A stretch of 64,000 nucleotides of DNA from an uncultured Clostridia bacterium (GCA_947625435.1 CANQOI010000003.1:1591-65590), one strand, 5' to 3'. Counted from the first letter of the stretch, positions 1-61,560 are shown. Translations and numbers: made by a program. Notes: a model not told the origin generated them from the sequence alone.

Positions 1-1219
1 TGTTGAAGATGCCCTTTATGACCTCGAGCTGATTGCGCCCGCGCTGCGGCTCCTCTCCCGGTATGGATTTTCTCTCGCGGCAGAACACGAGCGCCTTCCA
101 TCCGTCCATATAGTTCATGCCCTCGCTGAAGTAGACAGGCTCGCCCGTAAAATATGAGGTATACGAGTACTTCGAATATGCCTCTATCCCTCCGAGCGCA
201 TCCACTATTTTCTCAAGAGACGTAAAATTGACTCTTATCCAGTGGTCTATGTGTATCCCCTTGTACACATTCTGCTCAAGGGTGGCGATAGAAACGGAGC
301 AGTCGTTGTTGCCGTATATGCCGGCATGCGTGAGCTTGTCATAAGCGTCGCCCGTAACTCCGGGGAACTGAACGTATGCATCTCTCGGTATGGTAACGAG
401 CAATATCTTGTGAGTGTTCGGATTCACGGCCATCACTATGTTGACATCGCTCCTGCTCTTCTGATTTATGCTGCCGGAAACGTCTATGCCGCTTATATAA
501 AGTACAAACGGCCTTTCCGTAAGGGGCCCGTTGGGCGTCGCACCGGTCTGCCCGCTGTCCTGACCGGGATCGGTCTCTATATTTATTTCGACATCAATGT
601 CGTCCAGTATCCTGACATAGTTATCTATATTGTCACCGTTGTCGGCGTAAAAATCCCTGCGCATTCCGAAGAAATTCGTATCCATGAGTATCGCGCGCGT
701 TTCATCGCTGTTCATGAATGCGTTCCACATATCGTCGTAGCTGTCGTACGCGACAATGTTTATTGTGTGGCTCAGTCTTGCGGCGAGTCCGTCCATAGCT
801 TTCTTTATGGCATCAAAATCGTGATTGTTCTCCACGCCTATCTTATCGTTTGCAATGTCTTCTATCTTCTCTGCGCTGTCGTCAAGCTTGACTACAACGT
901 GATATTTGACAATATATGTCGATCCGGGCGTCGTCACTTTGTCTATGCCGCGGTTAAAAGGATTCACGTACTTAAATGACAGTACCGCAAGTACGACCGA
1001 CATGAGCAGTGAAAATACCATGCCTACCGCAACCAGCGGACGCGATCTTGATATGACGAGCACAGCCGATATTATCAACAAGAGCAGAAGTATGAGCACG
1101 ACAAAAAAGATATAAACGCTCCTGAGTATATCTGTTTTTATTATGCAAACGACAGCTGTTATAGAAAAGATCAGCTGGAGCAGAAAACCTATGATACCTG
1201 TTATCTTGATATTTTTCAT
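1..1219 (-). CDS. LytR-CpsA-Psr (LCP) family protein, partial; the C-terminal part runs off the window start
   Basis: Minus-strand translation from ATG at 1219..1217: MKNIKITGIIGFLL... with an N-terminal TM segment. Contains the LCP signature block ...RSDVNIVMAVNPNTHKILLVTIPRDAYVQFPG.... The plus-strand ORF 242..979 is its antisense shadow. Confidence 0.75.
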   Translation of the reverse strand, partial: MKNIKITGIIGFLLQLIFSITAVVCIIKTDILRSVYIFFVVLILLLLLIISAVLVISRSRPLVAVGMVFSLLMSVVLAVLSFKYVNPFNRGIDKVTTPGSTYIVKYHVVVKLDDSAEKIEDIANDKIGVENNHDFDAIKKAMDGLAARLSHTINIVAYDSYDDMWNAFMNSDETRAILMDTNFFGMRRDFYADNGDNIDNYVRILDDIDVEINIETDPGQDSGQTGATPNGPLTERPFVLYISGIDVSGSINQKSRSDVNIVMAVNPNTHKILLVTIPRDAYVQFPGVTGDAYDKLTHAGIYGNNDCSVSIATLEQNVYKGIHIDHWIRVNFTSLEKIVDALGGIEAYSKYSYTSYFTGEPVYFSEGMNYMDGWKALVFCRERKSIPGEEPQRGRNQLEVIKGIFN

Positions 1220-1410
1220 TTGTTATTACCTTCCGTTTCACATCGCGTACACAGGCACGCATGCATAGCTTTGTGCGTGCGTATCAAGACGCAGTGCTTA
1301 GATTAGTCCCATATACATGATTTGTCAAGTTAAAAACAGGTGACGGAAAATCACGATCATGTTTGACCTCTTTAATGTTTTATGTTATATTTCGCGATGG
1401 AGTGATTTAA

Positions 1411-1926
1411 TTGTATTCAAATTGGTATGTTATACAGGTACTTTCTAATAACGAATACAGGCTGTGCAGCAAGATAAACAACCGCATAGACCGCAGTCTG
1501 TACGCGGAATGTTTTGTTCCGCAGGCCGAGTATGTATATAAGTCGAACGGGAACGTCCATACGCGCGTAAGGCCGCTGTTTCCCGGATACATTTTTGTCA
1601 TAACCGATACGGTGGAGGATTTCTACAATCGACTCAGATTGATAGACGGCTTCAAGCGTTTTCTGAAGGACGGGAATTTTTTTACGTCCATAACAAACGA
1701 GGAGGCCGCATTTATCGCGGGTGTGACGGACAATGAGCACAGCGCCAGCATGTCCGAGGGGTATATACTCGATTCAAAGGTTTACATCACATCGGGTCCT
1801 CTCATGGGCAAGGAGGGCGCCATCAAGAAGATCGACCGTCACAAGAGGATCGCCCTCATCGAATTTTCTTTTATGGGCAATCCCGTCCAGATAAGGATGC
1901 CGCTCGAGATCGTGAGCAAGCTTTGA
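1411..1926 (+). CDS. NusG-family transcription antitermination paralog (NGN + KOW domains; LoaP/UpxY-like)
   Basis: TTG start with GGAGTG SD 7 nt upstream. N-terminus WYVIQV... is typical of an NGN domain. C-terminal KOW-like block ITSGPLMGKEGAIKKIDRHKRIALIEF. 171 aa, divergent from the LCP gene. Confidence 0.7.
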   Translation: MYSNWYVIQVLSNNEYRLCSKINNRIDRSLYAECFVPQAEYVYKSNGNVHTRVRPLFPGYIFVITDTVEDFYNRLRLIDGFKRFLKDGNFFTSITNEEAAFIAGVTDNEHSASMSEGYILDSKVYITSGPLMGKEGAIKKIDRHKRIALIEFSFMGNPVQIRMPLEIVSKL

Positions 1927-2013
1927 TACGATGCTGCGCCCGGCGTGCCTCCCCATGCATTTTCATCATAAAATAATATAAATAATGTATGTGAAATGCA
2001 GGAGGTAAAATGT

Positions 2014-2535
2014 ATGCGCACCACTCGCATCTGTCTTGTTGACAAATTTTTATTGGTCTTTTTGTCGGCACTTTTTATATACACGGCTTTCACACTTTTC
2101 ACGGGTACTATCGTAACGGAGAGCACTAAAACTGTCGACATACTGGTAAGAGCTTCATCGGCATCTATCTTCGGTTATTTTATAAGCAGCAATTTTGTAA
2201 AAAGTCACAGCGACAGCGGCATGGGCAGCCCGGAGGCCGCCGGCACCGATCAGGTTGCCGGCTGCGGCAATGACGGCACGGGCAGCAATGAAGGTACAGG
2301 CGGCACCGGCGCTGCGGAGACAGCAGCGCCTGCGCCGCAGGCGCCCGATCAAGTTAAATGCAATTCTCCGCAGGTGATAATCGTATCGCTGATAGGTCTT
2401 GTATCCATGATACTGATGTTCCTGTCAAACAAATACGCCGATGCCGCGCCGCACGCCGCAGCAACTATCGCGCAGCTCAGAGACTTTGTATCGGCGTGCG
2501 TCGGTTACCTCGTGAGCTGCGGCAAGTCTCACTGA
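2014..2535 (+). CDS. hypothetical membrane protein with a Gly/Thr/Ala-rich low-complexity linker
   Basis: ORF 1996..2535. The internal ATG at 2014 has a GGAGG SD 8 nt upstream. Two hydrophobic segments flank the low-complexity stretch GMGSPEAAGTDQVAGCGNDGTGSNEGTGGTGAAETAAPAPQAP. Confidence 0.45.
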   Translation: MRTTRICLVDKFLLVFLSALFIYTAFTLFTGTIVTESTKTVDILVRASSASIFGYFISSNFVKSHSDSGMGSPEAAGTDQVAGCGNDGTGSNEGTGGTGAAETAAPAPQAPDQVKCNSPQVIIVSLIGLVSMILMFLSNKYADAAPHAAATIAQLRDFVSACVGYLVSCGKSH

Positions 2536-2556
2536 CATCAGAATGAAATGCATGTA

Positions 2557-2584
2557 ACGAAGCCTTTTGATCGTTCATAGTATA
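2557..2584 (+). promoter_or_regulatory. sigma-K-like promoter upstream of dpaA (AC, 17 nt spacer, CATAgtaTA)
   Basis: The sequence gtaACgaagccttttgatcgttCATAgtaTAatt matches the mother-cell sigma-K consensus AC-17-CATANNNTA. It is placed about 35 nt before the dpaA start. Confidence 0.3.
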
Positions 2585-2617
2585 ATTAGTGAATTGATTT
2601 TACAAGAGGCTGAGAAA

Positions 2618-3490
2618 ATGGACGCACAAAAGAAATACAGGTTTTCCGTAGCGGGCGGTGATATGAGAAATGCGGATCTTGCGGAGCTGCTCGCGGCGGG
2701 CGGACACGACGCGTACACATTCGCTTTGGGCAATGCCGGTAAAATGAGCGGCCGCTGCTCAAACCTCGGCGAAGCGGCGGCGCTTTGTGATATTTTGATA
2801 TGCCCGATACCTTTTTCGACCGACGGAATATATCTTAACGCTCCTTTTCACACGGAAAAGATCAGTCTTCAGTCCGTTTCAGACATTTTACGTGAGTCCG
2901 GATTCGGAGGATTGCTCATAGGCGGACGCATACCGCAGGAGATCGTATCAACAGGCGTTGATTGCGTTGATATCCTTATGAGAGACGACCTGGCCATACT
3001 GAATTCTGTCCCCACCGCCGAGGGCGCTCTGCAGATCGCCATGGAGGAGCTTCCGTATACTGTTCACGGCATTAAAGCCGTGGTGTGCGGGATGGGGCGC
3101 GTGGGCTCCGCTCTTGCAAGACTGCTCGTAAAAGCGGGCGCGGATGTCACTGTTTCCGTGAGGAGCAGCCGGGACGCGGCTGTCTGCGAAGCGGAATGTA
3201 TCAAAAGTACATCTTATGAGGATCTGGCCGACATTTTGCCGGACGCTATGCTCGTATACAATACGGTGCCGGCAAGGGTGATCGACAGCCGCCTTTTGGA
3301 CGCGGCCAACGAAAATGCTCTTTTTATCGATCTCGCGTCGGCGCCGGGAGGCATCGATTTTGACTATGCCGCTTCCAGACACCTGCGTGTTATACACGCT
3401 CTTTCTCTTCCCGGGAAGGTGGCCCCGGCAGGTGCGGCTCAGATTCTGCAAAAGGTTATATTCAACGTTCTTCGCGAGAAAAATATGTGA
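2618..3490 (+). CDS. dpaA: dipicolinate synthase subunit A (SpoVFA)
   Basis: Start MDAQKKYRFSVAGGDMRNADLAELL with an AAGAGG SD. Rossmann motif VVCGMGRVG. Typical DpaA length (290 aa) and position directly upstream of the flavoprotein subunit. Confidence 0.8.
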   Translation: MDAQKKYRFSVAGGDMRNADLAELLAAGGHDAYTFALGNAGKMSGRCSNLGEAAALCDILICPIPFSTDGIYLNAPFHTEKISLQSVSDILRESGFGGLLIGGRIPQEIVSTGVDCVDILMRDDLAILNSVPTAEGALQIAMEELPYTVHGIKAVVCGMGRVGSALARLLVKAGADVTVSVRSSRDAAVCEAECIKSTSYEDLADILPDAMLVYNTVPARVIDSRLLDAANENALFIDLASAPGGIDFDYAASRHLRVIHALSLPGKVAPAGAAQILQKVIFNVLREKNM

Positions 3491-3514
3491 TTTTTTATAT
3501 GAGGGGTTGGTAAA

Positions 3515-4099
3515 ATGTTCGAATGTTTCGATGGGCTGCGCGTCGGGCTCGCCGTAACGGGCTCGTTCTGCACTCATAAAAATATTGCCGCCGTTGCTGA
3601 CAATCTTGTTAAGCGCGGCGCCGTTGTTTTTCCGATACTGTCATATGCCTCCTCTGAAACGTCTACGAGATTCATGTCAAGAGAGGAGCTGTATGATACG
3701 CTCGTGAGCATCACGGGGCACGAGCCCATTTGCACTATAAAGGAAGCGGAGCCTATCGGTCCCAAGAAGCTGCTCGATGTGGTGGCCGTCGTGCCCTGCA
3801 CGGGCAATACTATTTCTAAGCTCGCAAATTCCATTACCGACACGCCTGTTCTTATGGCGTGCAAGTCGCATCTGCGAAATAACAGGCCGATCGTCATTGC
3901 GGTCTCTACCAATGACGGTCTGTCAGGCAATGCCAAAAACATAGGTACGCTGCTGGCCATGAAGAATTTCTTTTTTGTTCCCTTCAGGCAGGACGACAGC
4001 GTTAAGAAGCCTTTTTCTCTCATGGCCGATTTTTCGCTTGTGAACGAGACTATCGCCATGGCTCTCGAGGGCTCCCAGCTGCAGCCTATCCTGCTGTAG
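3515..4099 (+). CDS. dpaB: dipicolinate synthase subunit B (SpoVFB, flavoprotein family)
   Basis: MFECFDGLRVGLAVTGSFCT... is a flavoprotein-fold N-terminus. 194 aa, GAGGGG SD, 24 nt after dpaA. Confidence 0.85.
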   Translation: MFECFDGLRVGLAVTGSFCTHKNIAAVADNLVKRGAVVFPILSYASSETSTRFMSREELYDTLVSITGHEPICTIKEAEPIGPKKLLDVVAVVPCTGNTISKLANSITDTPVLMACKSHLRNNRPIVIAVSTNDGLSGNAKNIGTLLAMKNFFFVPFRQDDSVKKPFSLMADFSLVNETIAMALEGSQLQPILL

Positions 4100-5193: not shown

Positions 5194-6402
5194 ATGATCT
5201 GTCAATTTTCATTCAGGAATTTTATGTCATATAAAAATGAGGCTGTATTTGATTTCCAGGCAGCAGCTATTCCCGAGTTGTCCGACAGCGTTATTACGGG
5301 GGATAAGATGTCTGATCTTCTCCCGGCCTGCGTGATATACGGCCCAAACGGAGGCGGAAAGTCTAATCTGCTCAAGGCATTTGCCTGCCTTGTTTGTACT
5401 GTTGTAAAGCCCGTTGCAGATCTCGGAAAGACAAGGGAGGCTTTAATATTGCAGCTTGGGGCAGACTGCATTCCGTTTTTGCTCGATGACAATTCGCGGG
5501 ATGAGAGCACCATGTTCCGAGTTTATTTCCGCACTGACGGCAGCGAATACCGGTACAGCTTGGCTATAAATAAAGACGAGATAGTATCCGAATCTCTTTC
5601 ATGGAGAAATATCGGAGGGAAGAAAACAGGCGTTGTCTTTATAAGAAACTTTAGTGACATAGACCTCGGAGCCAGCATTAATAAGACAAGTGTCAACAAA
5701 CAAGTTAACCCCAAGATGCCTTATCTGTCTTTCCTTGCTATCAATTATGATTTTCCGGTCATAGCAGAGGTAATATCATGGTTTGAATCATGTATTATTC
5801 AAAGTTATGCCAATACGCATGTCGACAGCAGGATATTCTTTACAGATGAGAGCAACAAAAAGTCGATCATCCGAGCTTTGAATGATCTGGATATTGATAT
5901 CGCCGATTACAGATTCAGTGATGACAAGAAGCAAATGTATACTGTCAGAACAGTAAATGAAAAATCATATGAACTGCCTTTCGAATACGAATCCGACGGC
6001 ACAAGAAAGCTGCTTACAGCTCTTCCTATCATACTGATCGCACTTCGTTACGGAAGATTTGTTGTTATAGATGAGCTGGATGCCAAACTTCATCCGAAGC
6101 TCCTTCGTTATATAATCAAGCTCTTTCACAACCCCGAGATCAATAAAAACGGAGCCCAGTTGCTTTACACCTCTCACGATCTGACTACCATGAAGAATGA
6201 TCTGTTCCGCAGAGATGAGATATGGTTTGCATGTGAAAATGATTCTCATGAGAGTGAAATATATTCATTATATGATATTCGCGACGAAAATGACAAACAC
6301 GTCAATAATACCGCCGCATACGATAAGCAGTATATAGAAGGAAGATACGGCGCCGATCCTTACCTGCAGAATATTTTAGGAGGCGAATGGAATGAGTCTT
6401 AA
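5194..6402 (+). CDS. AAA_21-type ABC/SMC-like ATPase (AbiLi/RloC/OLD-family-like), defence-associated
   Basis: P-loop VIYGPNGGGKSNLLKA near the N-terminus. Walker-B-like RFVVIDELDAKLHP and LYTSHD near the C-terminus (split ATPase layout). AT-rich gene with an AGAGGAG SD. Confidence 0.75.
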   Translation: MICQFSFRNFMSYKNEAVFDFQAAAIPELSDSVITGDKMSDLLPACVIYGPNGGGKSNLLKAFACLVCTVVKPVADLGKTREALILQLGADCIPFLLDDNSRDESTMFRVYFRTDGSEYRYSLAINKDEIVSESLSWRNIGGKKTGVVFIRNFSDIDLGASINKTSVNKQVNPKMPYLSFLAINYDFPVIAEVISWFESCIIQSYANTHVDSRIFFTDESNKKSIIRALNDLDIDIADYRFSDDKKQMYTVRTVNEKSYELPFEYESDGTRKLLTALPIILIALRYGRFVVIDELDAKLHPKLLRYIIKLFHNPEINKNGAQLLYTSHDLTTMKNDLFRRDEIWFACENDSHESEIYSLYDIRDENDKHVNNTAAYDKQYIEGRYGADPYLQNILGGEWNES

Positions 6403-7069
6403 GCCGACTAAAAAAACGGATCTTGGCAAGGACTGGCTTAAAGGCCGTGAGGCGCGGTCAACAAGAGTAAGACTCAATCCCGAATATCATCTTATTGTCA
6501 CTGAAGGAATTGATACAGAGCCGAGATATTTTGAAGCTATAAAAAACGAGATAAATAAGAATTTCAAAGACCGTATCAGCTTCGAAATAATCGGTACGGG
6601 AGATAATACAATCAGTCTTTTCAAAAAAGCTAAGTCCATCGTTGACAAAAGTCCCAATGGATTCAAGCACGTTTGGATCGTATACGATACCGACGACTTT
6701 CCACGGGAAAACATAAATCAAACTTTTGAGTTATGTAAGTCAAGCTCCACCGACGAAACAAAGTATCATGCTTTATGGTCTAATCAATGTATTGAACTCT
6801 GGTTCCTGCTTCACTTTGCCTACTATCATTCGGACATACACAGAACTGAGTATTGGCCGAAATTGACTGAACACCTAAAAAAAATCAATGCCGGAGAGTA
6901 TACAAAGGATCGCGATGATATGTATCTGATTTTGAAGCCGTTTGTTGATACTGCAATAAAAAATGCAAAAAAACTTGCATTTAGAAATCAAGGAAAAACA
7001 CCGGCAGAATCAGCCCCAGGCACTGAGGTATATCAGATCATTGAGATGCTTAAACCGTTTCTAAACTAA
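6392..7069 (+). CDS. RloB-like (AbiLii-like, TOPRIM-like) partner protein
   Basis: Overlaps the ATPase gene by 11 nt. HLIVTEGIDTEPRYFEAIK matches the RloB family signature (...IVCEGEKTEPNYF...). Acidic VWIVYDTDDF motif. 225 aa. Confidence 0.7.
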   Translation: MSLKPTKKTDLGKDWLKGREARSTRVRLNPEYHLIVTEGIDTEPRYFEAIKNEINKNFKDRISFEIIGTGDNTISLFKKAKSIVDKSPNGFKHVWIVYDTDDFPRENINQTFELCKSSSTDETKYHALWSNQCIELWFLLHFAYYHSDIHRTEYWPKLTEHLKKINAGEYTKDRDDMYLILKPFVDTAIKNAKKLAFRNQGKTPAESAPGTEVYQIIEMLKPFLN

Positions 7070-7736: not shown

Positions 7737-10700
7737 TTACGCCTCGTACAGATCTCTCAGCTTGAGCAGATGCTCATACTTAGCCTTGGCGGCATCAGCA
7801 GCCTTGGCAAAGAGCTCCTCTGCCCTCTCCGGGAACGCCTGCTTCAGGCGGCTGTAACGCGTTTCACTCTGTATGAAGTCGATATAGCTCTCCGTAGGAG
7901 CCTTGCAATCGATCGTAAGAGGATTCTTGCCCTCAGCCTTGAGCGCAGGGTTGAAACGGAATGTCTGCCAATATCCGGCGGCAACAGCCTTCTTCATCTC
8001 GGACTGGCAGTTCGTCATGCCGCCCTTGACACCGTGCATTTCACAGGGAGCATATCCTATCACAATGGAAGGACCGTGATAAGCCTCCGCCTCCGTAAGA
8101 GCCTTTATAGTCTGGTTCATATCTGCGCCCATTGCTATCTGAGCCACATAAACGTAACCGTAGGACATGGCGATCTCGGCAAGGTTCTTCTTGCCTATGG
8201 ACTTGCCTGCCGCGGCAAACTGAGCTACCTGACCTATCTGGCTCGCCTTGGACGCCTGTCCGCCGGTATTGGAGTAAACCTCTGTATCAAATACCATCAC
8301 GTTTACATCCTCTCCCGAAGCCAGAACATGGTCGAGTCCGCCGAAGCCTATATCATATGCCCATCCGTCGCCGCCGAATATCCATACGGACTTCTTGGCA
8401 AGATATTCCTTGCTCGCAAGTATCGTCTTGCGCTCCTCACAGTCGCAGTCAAGTGTTTCGAGCTTTGCTATAAGCTTTGCGGCAGGCTCTGCATTCGCCT
8501 TGCCGTCATCCTTTGTATCAAGGAATGCGGTGCAGAGAGCCTTCACTTCATCATCGGAAGTCTTGTCGGCAATACGCTCAACACATGCTATGAGCCTGTC
8601 TCTTATGGCCTTCTGACCTAAGAATATTCCGAGTCCGTGCTCCGCATTGTCCTCAAAGAGGCTGTTGCCCCATGCCGGTCCGCGGCCTGAGTCACGGTTT
8701 ACAGTATAAGGTGTGGCAGGCGCCGAGCCGCCCCATATGGAAGAGCATCCGGTAGCATTTGAAATATACATGCGCTCGCCGAAGAGCTGTGTTATAAGTC
8801 TTGCATATGATGTCTCCGCACAGCCTGCGCAGGAGCCTGAGAATTCAAGCAGCGGCTGGTTGAACTGGCTGCCCTTTACCGAGAAATCGCTGAAGGATGT
8901 GGGCTTCTTCGTGACCGTAGCCACAGTATAATCGAATGCCGCCTGCTGATCCTTCTGAGATTCCTGAGATACCATGCGAAGAGCCTTTTCCTTGGCGGGG
9001 CACACATTTACGCACAGTCCGCATCCCATACAGTCAAGCGGGCTTATCGAAACCGTGAATGTGTATTCCTCGCAGCCCTTGCCCTTCATCTGTACCTTCT
9101 TTGTAGATGCCGGAGCACCGGCTGCCTCCTCCGCGTTCATGACGAACGGACGGATCGTGGCATGCGGGCATACGAAGGAGCACTGGTTACACTGTATACA
9201 ATTCTCGGGTATCCACTCAGGAACGTCCACGGCAACTCCGCGCTTTTCAAATGCGGCGGAGCCCTGCGGGAACGTACCGTCAGCTCTGTCCTTAAATACC
9301 GATACGGGCAGAGAATCGCCCTGCATCATGCCCACGGGCTGAAGTATCTCTTTCACAAATCTGGCAAGCTCCGGAGACTTACTGTTGACATCGCGCTCCT
9401 CTTTTACAACGGGAAGCGTCTTCCATGACTCGGGAACGTCGATCTTAACTATCGCGTCAACGCCCGCGTCTATCGCCTTATAGTTCATTTCAACTACGGC
9501 TTCGCCCTTCTTCATATATGACTTCTTGGCTGCCGCCTTCATATATTCGACCGCCGTATCTATCGGTAAAATGTTAGCGAGCGCGAAGAATGCGGACTGG
9601 AGTATAGTATTCGTCCTCTTGCCCATTCCTATCTCTCTCGCCTTGTCGATAGCATTTACTATATAGAACTTAATGTCGTTTTCCGCGATATATCTCTTGA
9701 CCTCTGCCGGCAGGTGCTTTTCAAGCTCCTCCGGAGTCCACTGACAGTTAAGGAGGAACGTACCGCCCGGCTTAACATCATTTACTATCTTATATCCCTT
9801 GAGCATGTATGACGGATTGTGGCATGCAACGAAGTCGGCCTTTGTTATATAGTACGACGACTTTATGGGCTTATCTCCGAAGCGCAGGTGCGATATAGTA
9901 ACGCCGCCCGTCTTCTTTGAGTCATACTGGAAGTATGCCTGTATGAATTTGTCCGTATGGTCGCCTATTATCTTTATCGAATTCTTGTTCGCGCCCACCG
10001 TTCCGTCTCCGCCGAGACCCCAGAACTTGCAGCTTATTGTGCCTGCGGGAGCCGTATCCGGAGCGGGCTTCTCCGCAAGGGAGTGATGCGTGACATCGTC
10101 CACTATTCCTATGGTGAAATTTCCCTTAGGCTCGTCGGCCTTGAGATTCTCATATACGGCAAATATGCTCGGCGGAGGCGTATCCTTGGAGCCGAGTCCG
10201 TAGCGTCCGCCTACTACCTTGGCATTTACGCCCTTGGAAGCAAGAGCGGCGGCAACATCGAGATAAAGAGGCTCGCCCAAGGAGCCGGGCTCCTTCGTCC
10301 TGTCGAGCACTGCTATCTTCTTAGCTGTTGAAGGTATAGCCTCTATGAGCTTCTCTGCGCTGAAGGGTCTGTAAAGTCTTACCTTAACAAGACCTACCTT
10401 CTCGCCGCGGGCATTCATATAATCTATTACTTCCTCAGCCACATCGCAAATAGAGCCCATGGCAACTATGACCCTGTCGGCATCGGGAGCGCCGTAATAG
10501 TTGAACAGCTTATAATTCGTTCCTATCCTGGCATTTACCTGATTCATATAATCCTCGACCACAGCGGGAAGTGCCTCATAATAGCTGTTGCACGCCTCTC
10601 TGTGCTGGAAGAATATATCTCCGTTCTCTGCGCTGCCTCTTAATACAGGATGCTCGGGATTGAGAGCTCTCTTTCTGAACTCCGCAAGAGCGTCCCTGTC

Positions 10701-25288: not shown

Positions 25289-28200
25289 TCACTCCGAATC
25301 GGTCGTATCTGAAATATTGTCAAATACGTCTGCGTCAAGTTCTGCCTCTCCCTCTTCAAAATCAGATATTTCCGGCTCATCCGTGTCGTCAAAATCGTCA
25401 TCGTGAAGTATATCGTCCGACGGATCGGACTCGGCCGAAGCATCGCCCGACATGAATATTCCGCCCGAATCATCCGTAAATGACTGAAAATCGGGATTGT
25501 ATACGTCCTTCTTGGTCCTGTATTTATCGGGATTCTTTATATAATCCTCTTCCGCCTCTTTAAGCGGTATCTCCGTATTGTCTTCCGTAAAGATACGCAC
25601 GTCGAGAGCAAGGCTCTGCAGCTCTTTAACAAGCACCTTGAACGACTCCGGTATGCCGGGTTCGGGAACATTCTCACCCTTTACAATGGCTTCATAAGTC
25701 TTTACGCGTCCTATGGTATCATCGGACTTGATAGTGAGTATCTCCTGAAGTGTATACGCGGCTCCGTAAGCTTCGAGCGCCCATACTTCCATTTCACCGA
25801 AGCGCTGTCCTCCGAACTGTGCCTTTCCTCCGAGAGGCTGCTGTGTAACGAGCGAGTACGGTCCGGTCGAGCGCGCGTGTATCTTATCGTCAACAAGATG
25901 ATGAAGCTTAAGATAATACATATATCCGACTGTTACCGGGTTATCGAAGGGTTCTCCCGTACGGCCGTCGTAAAGTATCGTCTTTCCGTCCGGACTCTTG
26001 CCCGCAAGCTTGAGCGTGTCTATAATGTCATGCTCCGACGCCCCGTCGAATACAGGGGTCGCTATCTTCCATCCCAGTGCTTTTGCAGCGTATCCGAGAT
26101 GCACCTCTAGCACCTGACCTATGTTCATTCGGGAAGGAACGCCGAGAGGATTGAGCACTATTTCAAGCGGCGTACCGTCCGGCAGGAACGGCATATCCTC
26201 TTCCGGTAAAATCCTCGATATAACGCCCTTATTTCCGTGACGACCTGCCATTTTATCTCCGACGGAGAGCTTTCTCTTCTGAGCTATATAAACTCTTACC
26301 ATGCGGTTTACTCCGGGTGCCAGTTCATCGTCATTTTCTCTTGTAAATTCTTTAACGTCAACGACTATTCCGGATTCGCCGTGAGGAACCTTGAGTGATG
26401 TATCTCTTACATCTCTTGATTTCTCGCCGAATATGGCCCTCAGCAGTCTTTCCTCCGCAGTGAGCTCTGTCTCGCCCTTAGGAGTCACCTTGCCTACCAG
26501 TATATCTCCGGCATGAACCTCAGAGCCTACGATTATCACGCCGTTCTGGTCGAGCATGCGGAGCGCGTCCTCTCCCACATGGGGTATCTCGGCCGTTATC
26601 TCTTCCGGTCCGAGCTTTGTGTCTCTTGCCTCGCACTCATATTCTTCTATGTGTATCGAGGTGTATATGTCTTCTTTAACAAGCTTCTCGCTTATGAGGA
26701 CCGCGTCCTCGTAGTTGTAGCCTTCCCATGTCATAAAGCCTATGAGAGCGTTTCTTCCGAGAGCTATCTCTCCTTTGTCGGTGGACGGACCGTCCGCTAT
26801 CACATCGCCCTCTTCCACTCTCTGATCAAATGTCACGACAGGCTTCTGATTTATGCATGTGCCCTGATTGGAGCGCAGGAACTTGAGCAGATTGTACGTA
26901 TCAAACGTACCGTCATCGCGCTGAATGATTATATATTTGCCGGTGACGTCCTTGACTGTTCCGGAATGCTTCGCAAGCACAACGGCGCCCGAATCCTTGG
27001 CCGCTTTATACTCTATTCCCGTTGCTACGATAGGAGATTCGGCACAGAGCAGCGGAACAGCCTGGCGCTGCATGTTCGATCCCATGAGCGCACGGCTCGC
27101 GTCATCGTTCTCAAGGAACGGTATCATGGCCGCAGCCACGGACACTACCTGTTTCGGTGAAACGTCCATATAGTCGACACGTTCGCCTTCAACTTCTATA
27201 AATTCATCTCTGTATCTGCAGACGACCTTACGGTTCTTGAAATGTCCTTCCTCGTCGAGGGGCTCGTTTGCCTGAGCAATTATATATTTGTCCTCTTCAT
27301 CGGCCATGAGGTAGTCGATGTGATCGGTCACGATTTTCTTTTCGGGATCGTATTTTCTATATGGAGCTTCAATGAATCCGTATTCATTGATCCTCGCATA
27401 TGTACTCAGCGAGCCTATCAAACCTATATTCGGACCTTCCGGTGTTTCTATAGGACACATGCGTCCGTAATGCGAATAGTGTACGTCACGTACGTCGAAT
27501 GTCGCCCTTTCTCTGTTGAGTCCTCCCGGTCCCAGAGCGCTGAGCCTTCTCTTGTTGGCGAGCTCCGCCAGCGGATTCGTCTGATCCATGAACTGCGACA
27601 GCTGGCTCGAACCGAAGAATTCTTTGATCGCTGCCGTCACGGGTCTTGTGTTTATGAGCGCCTGAGGCGTTATCACGTCTTTCTCCTGCATCGCCATACG
27701 TTCGCGCACGATTCTTTCCATTCTCGAAAGTCCGATCCTGAACTGATTCTGGAGCAGTTCGCCTACGGAACGTATCCTTCTGTTCCCGAGATGGTCTATA
27801 TCATCCGTGAAGCCTATATCGTACTGCAGGTTCAGTATATAGCTGAAGGACGCTATTATATCGTCAAGCGTCAGATGCTTCGGCTGAAGATCGGGCACTC
27901 TGTTCTGTATCTCCTTCTCGAGCGCCTCGGTATCATCACCGACACGGTCAAGTATGTCTTTGAGCACTGTGTAATTTACACGTTCGGTTATGCCGTATTG
28001 TCTTACATTGAAAGGCACGTACTTCGTGATGTCCACAGTATTGTTTCCGATGATCTTAACAGGTCTGTACGATGTGTTTATGATTACGGTATTTATACCG
28101 CGATCCTGTATATCAACGGCCTTCTCCTCAGTCAGCGTCTCTCCGGCCTGTGCGATCACCTCTCCCGTTTCGGTGTCGATGACATCGGCCGCCAATGTCT

Positions 28201-29116
28201 TTCCTTCTATCTGTGAAAACAGTGAAAGCTTTTTGTTGAATTTATAACGGCCGACCTTGGCAAGGTCGTATCTCTTGGCGTCAAAGAACATTCCGTAAAG
28301 CAGAGAGCGGGCATTCTCAACGAGAGCCGGCTCACCGGGACGGAGCTTCTTGTATATCTCAATAAGCGCTTCGTCCGTATTCTGTGTCGAATCCTTCTGG
28401 AGTGTGTTCAGAAGGCGTTCGTCTACGATGGTATCCTCAACGTTCTCGGCATATGAAGGCGCGAGTTCATCCTTAGACACGGAGAAAAGGCCCAGTATGC
28501 TGCTGCTGTCGCTGTAGCCGAGGGCTCTCAGTAAGATCGTAGCGGGGATCTTTCTGTTTCTGTCTATCCTCACGTATACGATATCGCTGAAATCTATTTC
28601 CGTTTCAAGCCATGCTCCTCTGTTGGGGATGAGAGTTGATGCGGTTATATGCTTACCTTTGATCTTATCGTAATTCTTTTCAAAATATGCTCCGGGGGAA
28701 CGCACCAGCTGACTTACGATAACACGTTCGGCTCCGTTCATTATGAATGTTCCGTTATCCGTCATGAGAGGAAACTCTCCGAAGTATATAACGTCCTCCT
28801 TCATAAGTCCCGTTTCTTTATCTACAACACGTACGCGAACCTTAAGAGGAGATGCGTATGTCGCGTCTCTTTCCTTGCATTCCTCTATTGAATAATTGGT
28901 TTTGTTTTCGAGATAATAATCTACGAATTCCAGCATCAGATTTCCCGAATAATCGGTGATCGGGGAAATATCCTTAAAGACTTCTTTCAGGCCCTCGTCC
29001 AGGAACTGCTTATATGAGCTCTTCTGAACTGCTATGAGATTAGGCATTTCCAATATTTCCTGTATACGGGAATAGCTCTGTCTCTCATTCTGACCGTACA
29101 TTACCGAATGCACCAT
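25289..29116 (-). CDS. rpoB: DNA-directed RNA polymerase subunit beta with an acidic C-terminal tail
   Basis: 1275 aa. ...[15 protein letters not shown]... is the conserved N-terminus. GAGGTG SD. Confidence 0.95.
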
Positions 29117-29312
29117 TGATAATCACCTCATGTTTTCTTCCTGCAAAGCTGTCTCAGCAAGGCTTGTCCTGAAACTATTGCGCACCGTATGATTTCATGC
29201 TATAATCCGCACATCAGGACGGGCAACAGTTGATATTGGTACTACGCACGGCGCGTTTTGCGTGCGCCAATGCACCGTTGTAATCAATCAGGCGATTACA
29301 ACGCAGTTTGTT

Positions 29313-29341
29313 ATTGTATCACGAAGCAGTCAACGCGTCAA
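29313..29341 (-). promoter_or_regulatory. sigma-A-type promoter for rpoB (TTGACG, 17 nt, TACAAT)
   Basis: The minus strand reads TTGACGcgttgactgcttcgtgaTACAAT, about 190 nt upstream of rpoB. The perfect hairpin GTTGTAATC-aatcaggc-GATTACAAC (29278..29303) sits just downstream of the predicted TSS. Confidence 0.4.
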
Positions 29342-29516
29342 GACGGTGATAAGGTATCTCATAAAATTAATAATTTTCACATTTTGGTTATATTGGCGGC
29401 GGTGCGATCCGGCGTTTTATATGAGAATTCGTCGAATTATATATCTTCGTATTTTATATCTTCCTATTTCATTTCAATGATGTATAATACTACCCGTGAA
29501 GGAAGGAGCGGCAGTA

Positions 29517-30221
29517 ATGAACACAGCATTGATCCTGGCCGGCGGGAAAGGCACGCGCATGGGGGCTTCCGTGCCCAAACAATATATTTTACACAACGGT
29601 AAGCCCATACTCATACACACGTTGGAAGCATTTGCCGGACATGACGGTATAGATGACATATATATAGTATGTCCGCGGGACAGTATAGATCTGACGAGAG
29701 AAATGACCGTAAAATATAACGTGTCTAAGATAGCGGGCATTTTACCGGGAGGCGCGACGAGACGCGAATCGTCTCTTGCGGGCATACGCGCCATATCGGA
29801 GGATCACGGACGCGGTGACATAGTGCTCATACACGATGCGGCAAGACCGAATGTGTCCGCACGCATCATCTCGGAGAATATATCTGCGGCGGGCAGGTAC
29901 GGCGCGTGTGAAACGGCAGTAGCCGTATGCGACACGATAGCGGTATCCGAGGACGGGCTCAGGATAAAAAATATACCCGACAGAAGGTGCCTGTACAACG
30001 TGCAGACTCCTCAGTCGTTCAGGCTCGGGGTTATATATGACGCTCACACGGCGCTTGACGATAAACTCACGGAAAGCCCCGACGCCGCAAAAGACGTAAC
30101 GGACGATGCCGCTCTCATTTTACGGAACGGCGGCGATGTTTTTATTGTGGAGGGCGACAAATTGAACATCAAGATCACAACGGAGGAGGACCTCAGAATA
30201 TTATACAATATAATGATTTGA
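29517..30221 (+). CDS. ispD: 2-C-methyl-D-erythritol 4-phosphate cytidylyltransferase (IspD/TarI family)
   Basis: MNTALILAGGKGTRMGASVPKQYI... GGAGCGG SD. 234 aa. Confidence 0.75.
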   Translation: MNTALILAGGKGTRMGASVPKQYILHNGKPILIHTLEAFAGHDGIDDIYIVCPRDSIDLTREMTVKYNVSKIAGILPGGATRRESSLAGIRAISEDHGRGDIVLIHDAARPNVSARIISENISAAGRYGACETAVAVCDTIAVSEDGLRIKNIPDRRCLYNVQTPQSFRLGVIYDAHTALDDKLTESPDAAKDVTDDAALILRNGGDVFIVEGDKLNIKITTEEDLRILYNIMI

Positions 30222-30241
30222 TATTCGGGAGGTGTTGTGAA

Positions 30242-30463
30242 ATGTCCGGATGCTTGTGTATAGCAGGTTCTCAGAATCAGGCTTCGGCTATCGTTTCGAT
30301 GCTCAGGCGCGCGGGCGTAAGAAGTGAGATCGTTCCGACGCCGCGCCGCCTCGCGGAAGGCGAAGGCTGCTCGTACAGCGTGGAAATACCGCAAAAATAT
30401 GTTTCTGCCGCAATGGACATGCTGCGCCGTTCAGGCATGGACAACAGGATAGTGTGCCCGTAA
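30242..30463 (+). CDS. DUF3343-family small protein
   Basis: MSGCLCIAGSQNQASAIVSMLRRAGVRSEIVPTPRRLAEGEGCSYSV... resembles the DUF3343 pattern (...LIPTPRE...CG.S...). Its start overlaps the ispD stop. Confidence 0.5.
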   Translation: MSGCLCIAGSQNQASAIVSMLRRAGVRSEIVPTPRRLAEGEGCSYSVEIPQKYVSAAMDMLRRSGMDNRIVCP

Positions 30464-30796
30464 CGGAAAAATTTTACACTTGCTTTTTGTACGGTAAAAA
30501 TATATAATCCCGCCATGGAATGTCCGGGTGTATTCCTGGGGTGTTCGACAAGAACCTGTATTTTGAACCTACATCACAAACACGGGAATCCCATGCAAGA
30601 TGTTTTTAGACCGGGCCGCAAGCTAATTCCGGACTTTTGTCCGGCAGCGGAAGGTCGATATTACACGCAGGATACCCACCTAGCTCGGCTAGGTGTCAAA
30701 ATATTGGGGCGGCATCCCGGGTATCCCGGATTTTTTGCAGCAGCAACCGGAGACAGTTGCTGCTGCGTTCATTTGACGCCCCTCAGCGTCCGCCGT

Positions 30797-33274
30797 TTAT
30801 CTCACGGCCTTTACCTTGTAATCCTGAGCTTCTACTGCCTTCCTGAGGATATCGTCCCCGACTTCCTTTTCGAGTGTTACGACAGCGGTGCCGTCCGTGT
30901 GGCTTACGATTGCCTCTTTCACTCCGTCAAGCGCTTCAAGCGCCTTTTTTACGCGTGCTTCGCAGTGACCGCACATCATACCTTCGATCTCAAGAGTTCT
31001 TTTCATTCCGACAACTTCCTTTCCTTTCTTTTTTTTCATGTTGTTTTTGCGTTTTATTCTGTGATCCTTTCCGGGATCATGTATGCGTACAAAATTGAGT
31101 CTCAGAGCATTCGTAACGACACAGAAGCTTGAAAGGCTCATGGCAGCCGCGCCGAACATGGGGTTCATCTGCCACCCGAACAGATTTATAAAAACGCCGG
31201 CCGCGATAGGTATTCCTATAGTATTATATATGAACGCCCAAAACAGGTTCTCGTGTATGTTCCTGAGGGCCGCGCGGCTCAGCCTTATGGCCGCGGGCAC
31301 ATCGGACAGGCGGCTCTTCATCAGAACTACGTCTGCGGCGTCTATGGCAACGTCCGTTCCGGCGCCTATGGCAATGCCTATGTCCGCGGCGGTGAGCGCC
31401 GGAGCGTCATTTATCCCGTCTCCCACCATCACCACGGTGCCTTCCCGCCCAAGCTCACGTATCGCGCGTTCCTTGCCTTCCGGAAGCACGCCGGCTATCA
31501 CGGTGTCGGCTCCCGCCTGAGCCGCTATGGCATCTGCGGTGCGTTTATTGTCTCCCGTAAGCATCACGACGCGTATGCCCATATTTTTCAGCTCGTTTAC
31601 GGCCTCCCGACTGTCGGGTTTTATCACGTCCGCCACTGCGATTATACCGCAGAGCTCCCCTCCCCGTGAAAAATACAGGGGCGTCTTCCCTTCTCCCGAG
31701 AGGGCATCGGCTTTAAGCCTCATCTCTTCGGGTATTTCGGCAGTGCTCTTTATAAAGCTCTCGTTCCCGCCGCACAGCCGTATTCCGCCCGCGTCCGCCG
31801 TGAGGCCGTTTCCGGGGAGCGCTTTAAAACCGGTGACATCCTCCGCCTCAATGCCGCGTTCCTCCGCGCGCATGTTCACTGCTCCCGCGAGGGGATGTTC
31901 GCTCCTTTTCTCAAGCGTGTAAGCAATGCCCAGCAGTGCTTCCTCAGTATATCCTTCCGCCGGTAAAATGTCGGTGACCTGCGGTCTTCCCTCAGTGACT
32001 GTGCCCGTTTTGTCAAGTACGACAGTCTGCGCCCTGCCTGTCTTTTCAAGAGAAGCGGCAGTTTTAAACAGTATCCCGTTTCTCGCGCCCACTCCGCTTC
32101 CCACCATTATGGCGACAGGCGTGGCAAGTCCCAATGCGCACGGGCAGCTTATTACCAGCACGGATATGCCCCTTGCCAGTGCGAATCCCACCGTCCTGCC
32201 TGCTATGAGCCATATCAATGTCGTTAAAACGGCGATCGCCATCACAGCGGGAACAAATATTCCGGATACCTTATCCGCTACCTTAGCTATAGGCGCTTTT
32301 GTAGCCGCGGCATCGCTCACGAGGCGTATTATATTGGAAAGGGTCGTGTCCTCTCCGACTTTTAGTGCCTCGCAGCGTATAAAGCCCGATCGGTTCAGTG
32401 TTCCCGCGGAAACAGTCGAGCCCTCAGCTTTATCCGCAGGTATGCTCTCTCCCGTAAGAGCCGATTCATCCACCGCGCTGCTTCCTTCTGTTACCACTCC
32501 GTCAACGGGTATGTGTTCCCCCGGGCGCACGACAAATATATCGCCCTTTACGATCTGTTCTGCGGGCACCGTTATCTCGACGCCGTCCCTGATCACTGTG
32601 GCTGTTTCGGGCGCGAGCTTCATAAGGCTCTTAAGCGCGTCGGTCGTTTTACCCTTTGAGCGAGCCTCGAGCATTTTACCCAGAGTGATGAGCGTAAGTA
32701 TCATGGCCGCGGACTCAAAATAAAATTCGTGCATGTGCTCATCCGGCTGCATGCCCGTCATGGCAAACAGCGAGACTGTGCTGTATATGAATGCCGCCGA
32801 TGAACCGAGCGCCACGAGCGCATCCATATTGGGAGCACGATTTATGATGCTTTTGAAGCCGCTTATGAAAAACTTTCTGTTTATCACCATTATGATCTCG
32901 CACAAAAGCAGCTGCGCAAGTCCTGTCGCCATGTGATTTCCGCTGAAAAACGGCGGCAGCGGCCATCCCCACATGGCATTACCCATCGAGATGTACATGA
33001 GGGCGGCGAGGAATACGAGAGATATTATGAGACGCCGCCTGAGCGCGGGCGTTTCACGGTCTTTGAGCGTATCCCCTCCTTTAACGGACGCGCCGTAGCC
33101 TGCCCCCTGTACGGCGGATATCACGGCTTCATCCGTCGCGCTGCCCTCTACTCCCATTGAGTTTGTGAGCAGGCTTACGGAGCATGATCTCACTCCGGGC
33201 ACCTTTGATACTGCCTTCTCTATGCGCGCACTGCACGCGGCGCAGCTCATTCCCGTAATATTATACTGTCTCAT
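30797..33274 (-). CDS. copA: copper-translocating P-type ATPase with an N-terminal HMA domain and an in-frame C-terminal CopZ-like HMA domain
   Basis: N-terminal GMSCAACSARIEK, CPC motif CPCALGLATP, DKTGT phosphorylation motif, GDGINDAP hinge. The C-terminal 69 aa MKRTLEIEGMMCGHCEARVKK... form a second HMA domain fused after the ATPase. 825 aa. Confidence 0.9.
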   Translation of the reverse strand: MRQYNITGMSCAACSARIEKAVSKVPGVRSCSVSLLTNSMGVEGSATDEAVISAVQGAGYGASVKGGDTLKDRETPALRRRLIISLVFLAALMYISMGNAMWGWPLPPFFSGNHMATGLAQLLLCEIIMVINRKFFISGFKSIINRAPNMDALVALGSSAAFIYSTVSLFAMTGMQPDEHMHEFYFESAAMILTLITLGKMLEARSKGKTTDALKSLMKLAPETATVIRDGVEITVPAEQIVKGDIFVVRPGEHIPVDGVVTEGSSAVDESALTGESIPADKAEGSTVSAGTLNRSGFIRCEALKVGEDTTLSNIIRLVSDAAATKAPIAKVADKVSGIFVPAVMAIAVLTTLIWLIAGRTVGFALARGISVLVISCPCALGLATPVAIMVGSGVGARNGILFKTAASLEKTGRAQTVVLDKTGTVTEGRPQVTDILPAEGYTEEALLGIAYTLEKRSEHPLAGAVNMRAEERGIEAEDVTGFKALPGNGLTADAGGIRLCGGNESFIKSTAEIPEEMRLKADALSGEGKTPLYFSRGGELCGIIAVADVIKPDSREAVNELKNMGIRVVMLTGDNKRTADAIAAQAGADTVIAGVLPEGKERAIRELGREGTVVMVGDGINDAPALTAADIGIAIGAGTDVAIDAADVVLMKSRLSDVPAAIRLSRAALRNIHENLFWAFIYNTIGIPIAAGVFINLFGWQMNPMFGAAAMSLSSFCVVTNALRLNFVRIHDPGKDHRIKRKNNMKKKKGKEVVGMKRTLEIEGMMCGHCEARVKKALEALDGVKEAIVSHTDGTAVVTLEKEVGDDILRKAVEAQDYKVKAVR

Positions 33275-61386: not shown

Positions 61387-61560
61387 GCATAAAATCTGAA
61401 ACATACAGCAGAATAACATCTATACAGTATTCAGTGCATGACTTGTCGCCCGGTTTCACGAATCGGACATTCTCCACATGAGTTACCTGCCCATGCACGG
61501 TTGATCATCCGCGCGGCAGCAATCTCCTGCTTCATCGTCTGTCAAGTCGCAACAGGCGAA

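Follow-up and report, generated by a model that had tools for sequence, protein, structure and literature searches.

A stretch of 64,000 nucleotides (nt) from an uncultured Clostridia bacterium (GCA_947625435.1, CANQOI010000003.1:1591-65590), hereafter the window and numbered from its first letter, carries at 1411..1926 on the plus strand a gene for a 171-residue protein which, by its scores against curated models, is a LoaP-family antiterminator and not a housekeeping NusG, UpxY or RfaH. The gene, loaP, stands head-to-head with a gene for an LCP (LytR-CpsA-Psr) glycopolymer transferase, and the two together form a chromosomal module that is conserved throughout a clade of gut Clostridia, uncultured and with Candidatus Egerieisoma among its members. 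The canonical cis element of LoaP is absent locally. With regard to function, it is about an even call that this LoaP acts in trans on an unlinked operon for envelope polysaccharide, the neighbouring LCP gene being co-expressed from a shared promoter region, a picture drawn by analogy with the LoaP of Bacillus velezensis. Taken as a protein, the product is unremarkable and belongs to a known family; a standard annotation pipeline that uses the NCBIfam model NF033641 would give it the name 'antiterminator LoaP'. What sets it apart from all LoaP settings so far described is the system around it, where an adjacent hairpin, a leader terminator and a long operon are all missing and the partner is a conserved head-to-head LCP gene. 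Apart from LoaP, no NusG paralogue is known to be recruited by a hairpin in the nascent RNA, and work on LoaP has been confined to one organism.

Identity and fold of the window protein

The family assignment is carried in the first instance by curated hidden Markov models. The window protein scores 169.8 bits on NF033641 (antiterminator LoaP, cut-off 125), and falls below the cut-off on the models for housekeeping NusG (TIGR00922, 60.9 bits against 135.7), UpxY (NF033644, 52.8 against 100) and RfaH (TIGR01955, 34.4 against 144.5); the LoaP model is also the best match for each of the 20 aligned members of its clade (20/20). The gene was called as an open reading frame (ORF) with a TTG start and supported by both Pfam and NCBIfam. 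Within its product, Pfam recognises two domains, NusG/NGN over residues 4-100 (E 1.3e-12) and KOW over residues 122-147 (E 1.4e-6), the KOW motif being KKIDRHKR. A GGAG Shine-Dalgarno (SD) sequence lies at 1399-1402, 8 nt 5' of the TTG, and orthologues have either TTG or ATG at the same place, with the SD sequence also kept.

The structural comparison agrees with this assignment. The best sequence match in the PDB is 8f5g, a LoaP-RNA complex (E 6.9e-20), as against 3.4e-7 for the best NusG. An AlphaFold (AF2) model made from the clade alignment, with a mean predicted local distance difference test score (pLDDT) of 78 and a predicted template modelling score (pTM) of 0.68, has an alpha/beta NGN domain followed by a five-strand KOW beta-barrel. 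When this model is compared with the PDB by Foldseek, three chains of 8f5g rank first (template modelling score 0.68, root mean square deviation (rmsd) 4.3 Å over 168 columns), whereas most full-length NusG chains can be superposed domain by domain only, the rmsd over the whole chain being 13-17 Å. Since 8f5g is both the best match and the one with a low rmsd, the predicted structure reproduces the compact NGN-KOW packing of the LoaP-RNA crystal structure.

The question which follows is whether the gene could nevertheless serve its host as housekeeping nusG, having moved away from the secE-rplK cluster. Such a reading draws on the fact that there is no second NusG-like ORF within the 64-kb window, and hence no separate housekeeping nusG there, even though the window contains rpoB, rpoC, rpsL, rpsG, fusA and tuf (assigned by ORF size and order only) together with the S10 operon. 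Set against it are the score on TIGR00922, less than half of the cut-off, the passing score on the LoaP model, the nearest structure being that of a LoaP, and the relatives of the gene, all of which occur in LCP or polysaccharide contexts and never beside secE or rplK. Housekeeping NusG identity is rejected on these scores, and displacement is an extremely improbable explanation. An earlier note on this DNA had described a 171-residue NGN+KOW protein with a TTG start and a good SD sequence, had taken it for a specialised NusG paralogue of the LoaP or UpxY kind lying outside the secE-nusG-rplK position, and had named clustering with housekeeping NusG as a point that would speak against this. 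The description of the gene is borne out in full, the kind of paralogue is narrowed to LoaP, the neighbours are an LCP gene and dpaAB and not the secE-nusG-rplK cluster, and such clustering finds no support in the curated models.

The LoaP leader RNA and its absence from the window locus

In B. velezensis, LoaP requires a small hairpin of the UNCG type in the leaders of dfn and mln, and it antagonises NusA at intrinsic terminators (PMC12691694). The dfn hairpin oligonucleotide is GGCCAAUCGCGUCUUCGGCACGUUGCC. A related element can be recognised among the more distant relatives of the window protein (35-46% identical, mostly from the human gut), in which loaP lies within long polysaccharide operons on the same strand (loci L018-L100 of our collection). 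In these operons, a hairpin of the form AAUCGUCGC-NNN-GYCGCGUU is found about 70-200 nt from loaP, with a covarying outer stem and with flanks and length which match those of the dfn hairpin, and we take the two to be homologous. Locus L060 may serve as an example, where the order is LCP, Polysacc_synt_2 (CapD-like), loaP, a PglD-like acetyltransferase, an initiating sugar transferase, an epimerase, GT1, GT2 and Wzy, with the hairpin placed between the CapD-like gene and loaP. In an alignment of 23 such hairpins, 91.6% of cells pair, compared with 70.1% in shuffles, and there are 78 double-sided changes, compared with 28.8 in shuffles; the signal collapses once the partners are slid with respect to each other. 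A second box, GGCGAAGCNURYC, stands 40-90 nt 3' of the hairpin in 36 loci, at the 3' side of a further stem that varies in sequence, such that the leader has two parts (L060:9887-9985, L036:9838-9963 and L057:9782-9911 are examples).

A covariance model, R1, built on the alignment of 23 hairpins gives 56 matches at 38-52 bits in the related loci, all of them on the loaP strand, with variants at 19-33 bits; hairpins with a short loop score 19-23 bits. The nearest outgroup to the core clade (L106, LoaP 50% identical) has such a short-loop hairpin at 2223-2266 (21.4 bits) in the leader of the operon which adjoins loaP, the order being loaP, a near-consensus promoter, the hairpin and then Polysacc_synt_2 (L106:2160-2410). 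The short-loop variant is also present in L023, L080, L089 and L096, and in the first of these (LoaP 45% identical) promoter, hairpin and box lie immediately 5' of loaP. The number and position of the copies vary: L038, L040 and L041 have two (9887-9931 and 10554-10598), one 5' and one just 3' of loaP, and in L059, L061, L064 and L094 the sole copy is 3' of the gene.

The same element was searched for in the 64-kb window and in the loci of the core clade (within 10 kb on either side of the relatives' loaP), some 323 kb in all. With filters off, R1 reaches at most 14.8 bits (E 0.68) over the window, in an unrelated ORF and with the conserved core missing, and over the core-clade loci it gives no matches. 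Searches by pattern for the box and for either hairpin variant, in which as many as three mismatches were allowed, gave nothing or matches at the level of chance. A scan for UNCG tetraloops yields 20 hairpins in the window, of which none falls on the relevant strand of the loaP/LCP region, and there is neither hairpin nor terminator in the gaps 3' of loaP. A relaxed scan for AUYG...CRUU with an outer stem gave only scattered, non-syntenic matches in the clade, which were rejected; one of them, antisense inside the loaP of L005, was put down to the coding constraints of that gene. Nothing relevant came from Rfam, whether over the whole window (at the gathering threshold) or over 900..2700 with E up to 10; as Rfam 15 has no model for the LoaP leader, these empty scans carry no information. 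From the R1 and pattern results, the canonical cis apparatus is absent around the window gene and its close relatives. The earlier note had remarked that the target of the protein was not obvious and had pointed to the leaders, 1220..1410 among them, as the place to look for a LoaP-type RNA element; the direct search, which included that interval, found no R1 match, and the remark still stands. Nor was any ops-like element identified at the window locus.

The divergent LCP gene and the shared promoter region

LCP ligases fix capsule and teichoic-type polymers to the cell wall. The LCP gene of the window (2..1219, minus strand; Pfam LytR_cpsA_psr, E 4.8e-31) starts at 1219 and leaves through the start of the window, such that its first 406 codons are visible; the best NCBIfam match of its product is to the CpsA type, below the cut-off of that model. 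Orthologous loci were gathered from metagenome and genome collections, the closest named relatives being uncultured gut Clostridia, Candidatus Egerieisoma among them. In 14 of 16 distinct lineages with a LoaP at least 56% identical to that of the window, a divergent LCP gene lies 130-250 bp from loaP. Two LCP paralogues in tandem, in some cases with one further gene, are present in most of these lineages, and in the loci with sufficient upstream sequence (L002, L006, L101 and L104) a convergent SpoIID gene closes the operon. As far as can be read from these orthologues, the LCP operon would be of only one to three genes.

The window LCP is the 'distal' paralogue of the pair. Its identity is 74% with the LCP that adjoins loaP in L101 and 58-69% with the distal member of the tandem pair in other relatives; of the two LCPs of L002, it is closer to the distal one (67%) than to the proximal one (46%). 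L105 and L005 have retained the 'proximal' gene beside loaP. The adjacency of an LCP gene to loaP is thus maintained whichever paralogue survives, and the LCP gene is the sole conserved neighbour of loaP. There are two exceptions to the adjacency. In the lineage of L007 and L015, a gene for a 1764-residue RHS-repeat toxin (DUF6531 + RHS), with a leader of 271 nt, replaces the LCP genes opposite loaP (L007:3-5294), and in L103 loaP lies among transposase fragments and genes that resemble those of mobile elements.

Between loaP and LCP, two promoters of sigma-A-like appearance lie back-to-back. That of loaP, found by consensus scan (1363..1391, plus strand), has TTGACC, a spacer of 17 nt and an extended -10 box TGnTATATT, both boxes being kept in the orthologous intergenic regions; from their positions, the 5' untranslated region of loaP is predicted to be about 12-14 nt. 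On the minus strand (1300..1328), TTGACA (1328-1323) and TAATCT (1305-1300), again 17 nt apart, can be read from the sequence and presumably act as the LCP promoter. A conserved GGGAC precedes this -10 box, and both ACTTGACAAA and GGGAyTAAyCTA are kept across the clade loci. The predicted LCP leader (1220..1293, minus strand) is about 74 nt, and that of L101 about 115 nt, lengths which are consistent with the loss of the proximal LCP gene in both; in most relatives it is only some 30-40 nt. The window leader contains a hairpin, GCACGCA/TGCGTGC at 1255-1280, which has no T-run. As a candidate LoaP element it was rejected, having a stability no greater than that of shuffles (fold z 0.24), no conservation and no UNCG-type loop.

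These observations bear directly on the chief alternative, namely that LoaP works in cis, with the divergent LCP operon as its target and a non-canonical signal as its point of entry, raising elongation through the one to three genes of that operon; the signal might be the promoter-proximal GGGAC-TAAyCTA region, non-template DNA or a lineage-specific RNA. Such a role is possible but doubtful. It would accord with the LCP gene being the only conserved neighbour, irrespective of paralogue, with the conserved block just 5' of the LCP -10 box, with NGN residues which differ from those of hairpin-associated LoaPs (see below), and with the use of DNA signals by other NusG paralogues, namely ops by RfaH and opsX, of roughly 40 bp, by UpxY (PMC11685472). 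Yet the short transcribed leaders are unconserved in the relatives apart from the SD sequence, promoter sequence is an adequate explanation of the conserved block, and processive antitermination would seem to bring little to an operon of 1.5-4.5 kb. Moreover, the consensus scan finds no terminator in the LCP leader and only weak terminator-like sites in the window, and within the LCP genes there is no excess of intrinsic terminators over shuffles (9 in L002 where 10.1 are expected, 11 in L012 where 9.0 are expected).

Selection and residue changes in the protein

Strong purifying selection acts on loaP. Comparison of the window gene with its relatives shows saturation at synonymous sites (proportion of differences 0.76, as against 0.14-0.15 at non-synonymous sites); among the relatives, where synonymous sites are unsaturated, dN/dS is 0.07-0.12. 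In the alignment, the KKIDRHKR of the KOW domain is identical between the window clade and the hairpin-associated LoaPs. The NGN domain has two clade-specific changes, one in the RTG loop, where 'QVRTGxE' becomes 'QV(L/Q)(S/P)(N/K)(N/S)E(Y/H)', and the other in the basic patch before the beta-hairpin, where '(K/R)(K/R)(Y/F)xGxW' becomes '(Y/F)Kx(N/D)G'. In B. velezensis LoaP, residues E40, R41 and I143 are required for RNA binding (PMC12691694). The probable counterpart of the E/R pair is Y43/K44 in the window protein, as aligned to 8f5g, at a position which also varies among hairpin-associated LoaPs.

One further feature of the coding sequence concerns the DNA itself. In L002 (6466-6484, minus strand) and L012 (10423-10441, minus strand), the antisense strand of the loaP codons for KIDRHKRS contains a perfect palindrome of terminator-like form, CGACCGCTTATGGCGGTCG, with seven or eight T after it; the window does not have it. 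The convergent downstream gene of L002 ends exactly at the loaP stop codon, and the palindrome may therefore be the terminator of that gene, embedded in loaP.

A protein so constrained, yet changed in its NGN domain, might have ceased to be an antiterminator and become a different regulator that binds RNA or RNA polymerase; it might serve, for instance, as an additional elongation factor of general scope or act post-transcriptionally in connection with the envelope or sporulation. Commensurate with this are the local absence of hairpin, second box, leader terminator and long operon, the combination of purifying selection with clade-specific substitutions, and the recurrence of sporulation genes (SpoIID, GerA-type and dpaAB) near loaP. 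Sporulation genes are, though, abundant in Clostridia genomes, such that their proximity may mean nothing; the fold, the domain packing and the basic KOW motif are those of LoaP; and both promoters look sigma-A-like. A change of role of this kind is, on balance, unlikely.

Proposed mode of action

The window LoaP is taken to be a functional protein, in view of the purifying selection on its gene, and the mechanism proposed for it is as follows. The gene would be transcribed from its sigma-A-type promoter, back-to-back with that of LCP. The NGN domain would ride on RNA polymerase and, jointly with KOW, bind a small hairpin within the leader RNA as it emerges, whereupon the bound LoaP would cancel the intrinsic termination that is stimulated by NusA, permitting read-through of an operon which contains terminators. 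The recruitment site would be elsewhere in the genome, before an unlinked operon for cell-envelope polysaccharide, and LoaP would reach it in trans, as B. velezensis LoaP does with mln. The LCP protein, co-expressed from the divergent promoter region, would then attach the polysaccharide product to the wall. In B. velezensis, dfn and mln both depend on LoaP, and LoaP supplied from an ectopic locus works (PMC12691694); it is by analogy that we infer the antitermination activity, the trans target and the co-regulation with LCP. The placing of the site follows from the locus, where neither the window gene nor its close relatives have a hairpin, a leader terminator or a long operon, such that a site elsewhere is the most likely. 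A target of the polysaccharide kind is in keeping with the more distant loaP genes, which stand in operons of LCP, Polysacc_synt_2, sugar transferase, glycosyltransferase and Wzy genes.

Several points weigh against action in trans on a distant hairpin. The one piece of evidence for a target in trans is the local absence of the hairpin, and that absence extends over the whole of the 323 kb or so that was searched, without a target having been found. The conserved adjacency of LCP suggests, as such adjacency usually does, a relationship in cis, which favours the cis alternative described above. The NGN differences from hairpin-associated LoaPs suggest that the RNA specificity of the clade, or its dependence on RNA at all, may have been altered. 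To these is added the lack of a separate housekeeping nusG in the window. With these points taken into account, action in trans with LCP co-expressed stays evenly poised.

Genes downstream of loaP

On the same strand as loaP, and after a gap of 69 nt, is a gene for a 179-residue membrane protein (1996..2535, plus strand, ORF call), with a linker rich in Gly, Thr and Ala and at least two hydrophobic segments (9-41 and 122-147). It has no Pfam or NCBIfam match, and no homologue in any related loaP locus. After it comes the dpaA-dpaB (spoVF) unit (2557..4099, plus strand, with its sigma-K-like promoter), identified by the NCBIfam DpsA and DpaB models. The dpaA ORF has 307 codons from TTG 2567 (2567..3490, plus strand), and the NCBIfam alignment begins at residue 22, which suggests that the true start is probably ATG 2618; dpaB occupies 3515..4099 (plus strand, NCBIfam). 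The sigma-K consensus of Bacillus subtilis promoters is AC, 16-17 nt and CATAnnnTA. The putative sigma-K-type promoter of dpaA has AC at 2557-2558, 17 nt, and CATAGTATA at 2576-2584.

The arrangement raises the question of whether LoaP drives read-through of its own transcript into the 179-residue gene and dpaAB. The genes are indeed on one strand with short gaps (the second of about 82 nt), and no significant terminator lies between loaP and the 179-codon ORF, nor is there a convincing one after loaP. None of the three downstream genes is, however, near any related loaP, dpaA and dpaB included; what follows loaP in the relatives varies everywhere, being in many loci a convergent gene (PALP, GerA-type or nad) and in others one for a different protein; there is no hairpin in the gaps; and dpaA has a sigma-K-like promoter of its own. 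Read-through of this kind is very unlikely. A link of loaP to the 179-residue protein or to dpaAB was rejected on synteny: given the absence of dpaAB from related loci and its sigma-K-like promoter, the juxtaposition with dpaAB is incidental, and both it and the 179-residue protein are almost certainly unrelated to loaP. The gene order given in the earlier note, a head-to-head LCP gene and then a Gly/Thr-rich membrane protein and dpaAB, is confirmed by ORF, Pfam and NCBIfam analysis; as partners of loaP, only the LCP gene is conserved, and the membrane protein and dpaAB are not. The extent of the LCP operon, which the same note had wished to see followed past the window start, comes to one to three genes by way of the orthologues only, with no LoaP-type leader.

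In the four nearest relatives (LoaP 75-77% identical), a conserved protein of 626-634 residues with no Pfam match is encoded on the same strand, 26-80 nt 3' of loaP (L005:1578-3482, L101:5535-7415, L102:767-2647 and L105:1756-1920). In the window, the unrelated 179-residue membrane protein stands in its place.

Comparison with described systems

The window protein resembles the LoaPs of B. velezensis and Thermoanaerobacter pseudethanolicus (PDB 8f5g) in belonging to the same family by a curated model, in its two-domain size, in its predicted NGN-KOW packing, in a KOW motif of the KKIDRHKR type, and in being encoded beside a locus for cell envelope or secondary metabolism. It is unlike both in the RTG loop and basic patch of its NGN domain. 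With respect to B. velezensis LoaP in particular, action in trans would be possible in principle here also (PMC12691694); the window locus, however, has no hairpin of the GGCCAAUCGCGUCUUCGGCACGUUGCC type or relative of it and no leader terminator, and the neighbouring operon is of one to three genes (LCP, sometimes one more), not of tens of kilobases.

The LoaPs of the gut-Clostridia polysaccharide operons (L018-L100) are similar in protein sequence, at the 35-46% identity given above, and share the association with LCP. There, however, loaP is co-oriented with LCP in a long operon, whereas in the window it is divergent from it, and both RNA elements, the hairpin and the GGCGAAGCNURYC box, are missing at the window locus. 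UpxY, of Bacteroides capsule operons, and RfaH, of Proteobacteria, are likewise specialised NusG paralogues, theirs promoting genes for envelope polysaccharide, and they are recruited at DNA signals (PMC11685472). Unlike upxY, the window gene is not the first in an operon.

Other features of the window

There is no glycosyltransferase cluster in the 64-kb window, and no long polysaccharide or polyketide operon adjacent to loaP. Within 25289-33274, the ORFs taken as rpoB-rpoC lack the usual rplK-rplA-rplJ-rplL/nusG cluster on their 5' side; upstream of them are an IspD-like cytidylyltransferase gene (29496-30221), a 6S RNA (30530-30727, 56.7 bits) and a heavy-metal P-type ATPase gene (30797-33274). 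An S10-Clostridia leader is found at 61443-61544 on the minus strand. At 5194-7069, a gene for an AAA_21 ATPase (402 residues) overlaps one for an RloB-like protein (225 residues), a pair which resembles, and may be, a toxin-antitoxin or abortive-infection defence module.

Implications

It is tempting to suppose that the core clade is a LoaP lineage which no longer uses a hairpin of the dfn type and is recruited to RNA polymerase in a new way, such that it controls the attachment of wall glycopolymers and not a long biosynthetic operon; the new signal could be another RNA, or it could lie in the divergent promoter region that the two genes share or in the early transcribed DNA of the LCP operon. 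This supposition is a speculative one, and we consider it rather improbable. If it were true, a hairpin-independent LoaP would be a third mode of recruitment among bacterial NusG paralogues in Gram-positive bacteria.

More generally, a protein which is kept under strong selection while the adjacent hairpin, terminator and operon have been shed offers a natural test of whether LoaP always needs a hairpin, and the same clade tests whether LoaP routinely works in trans. The leader of hairpin plus box, for its part, provides a practical probe for LoaP-controlled polysaccharide loci in gut genomes. Taken with the conserved LCP partner, the window gene would link the control of transcription elongation to LCP ligases in the gut Clostridia.

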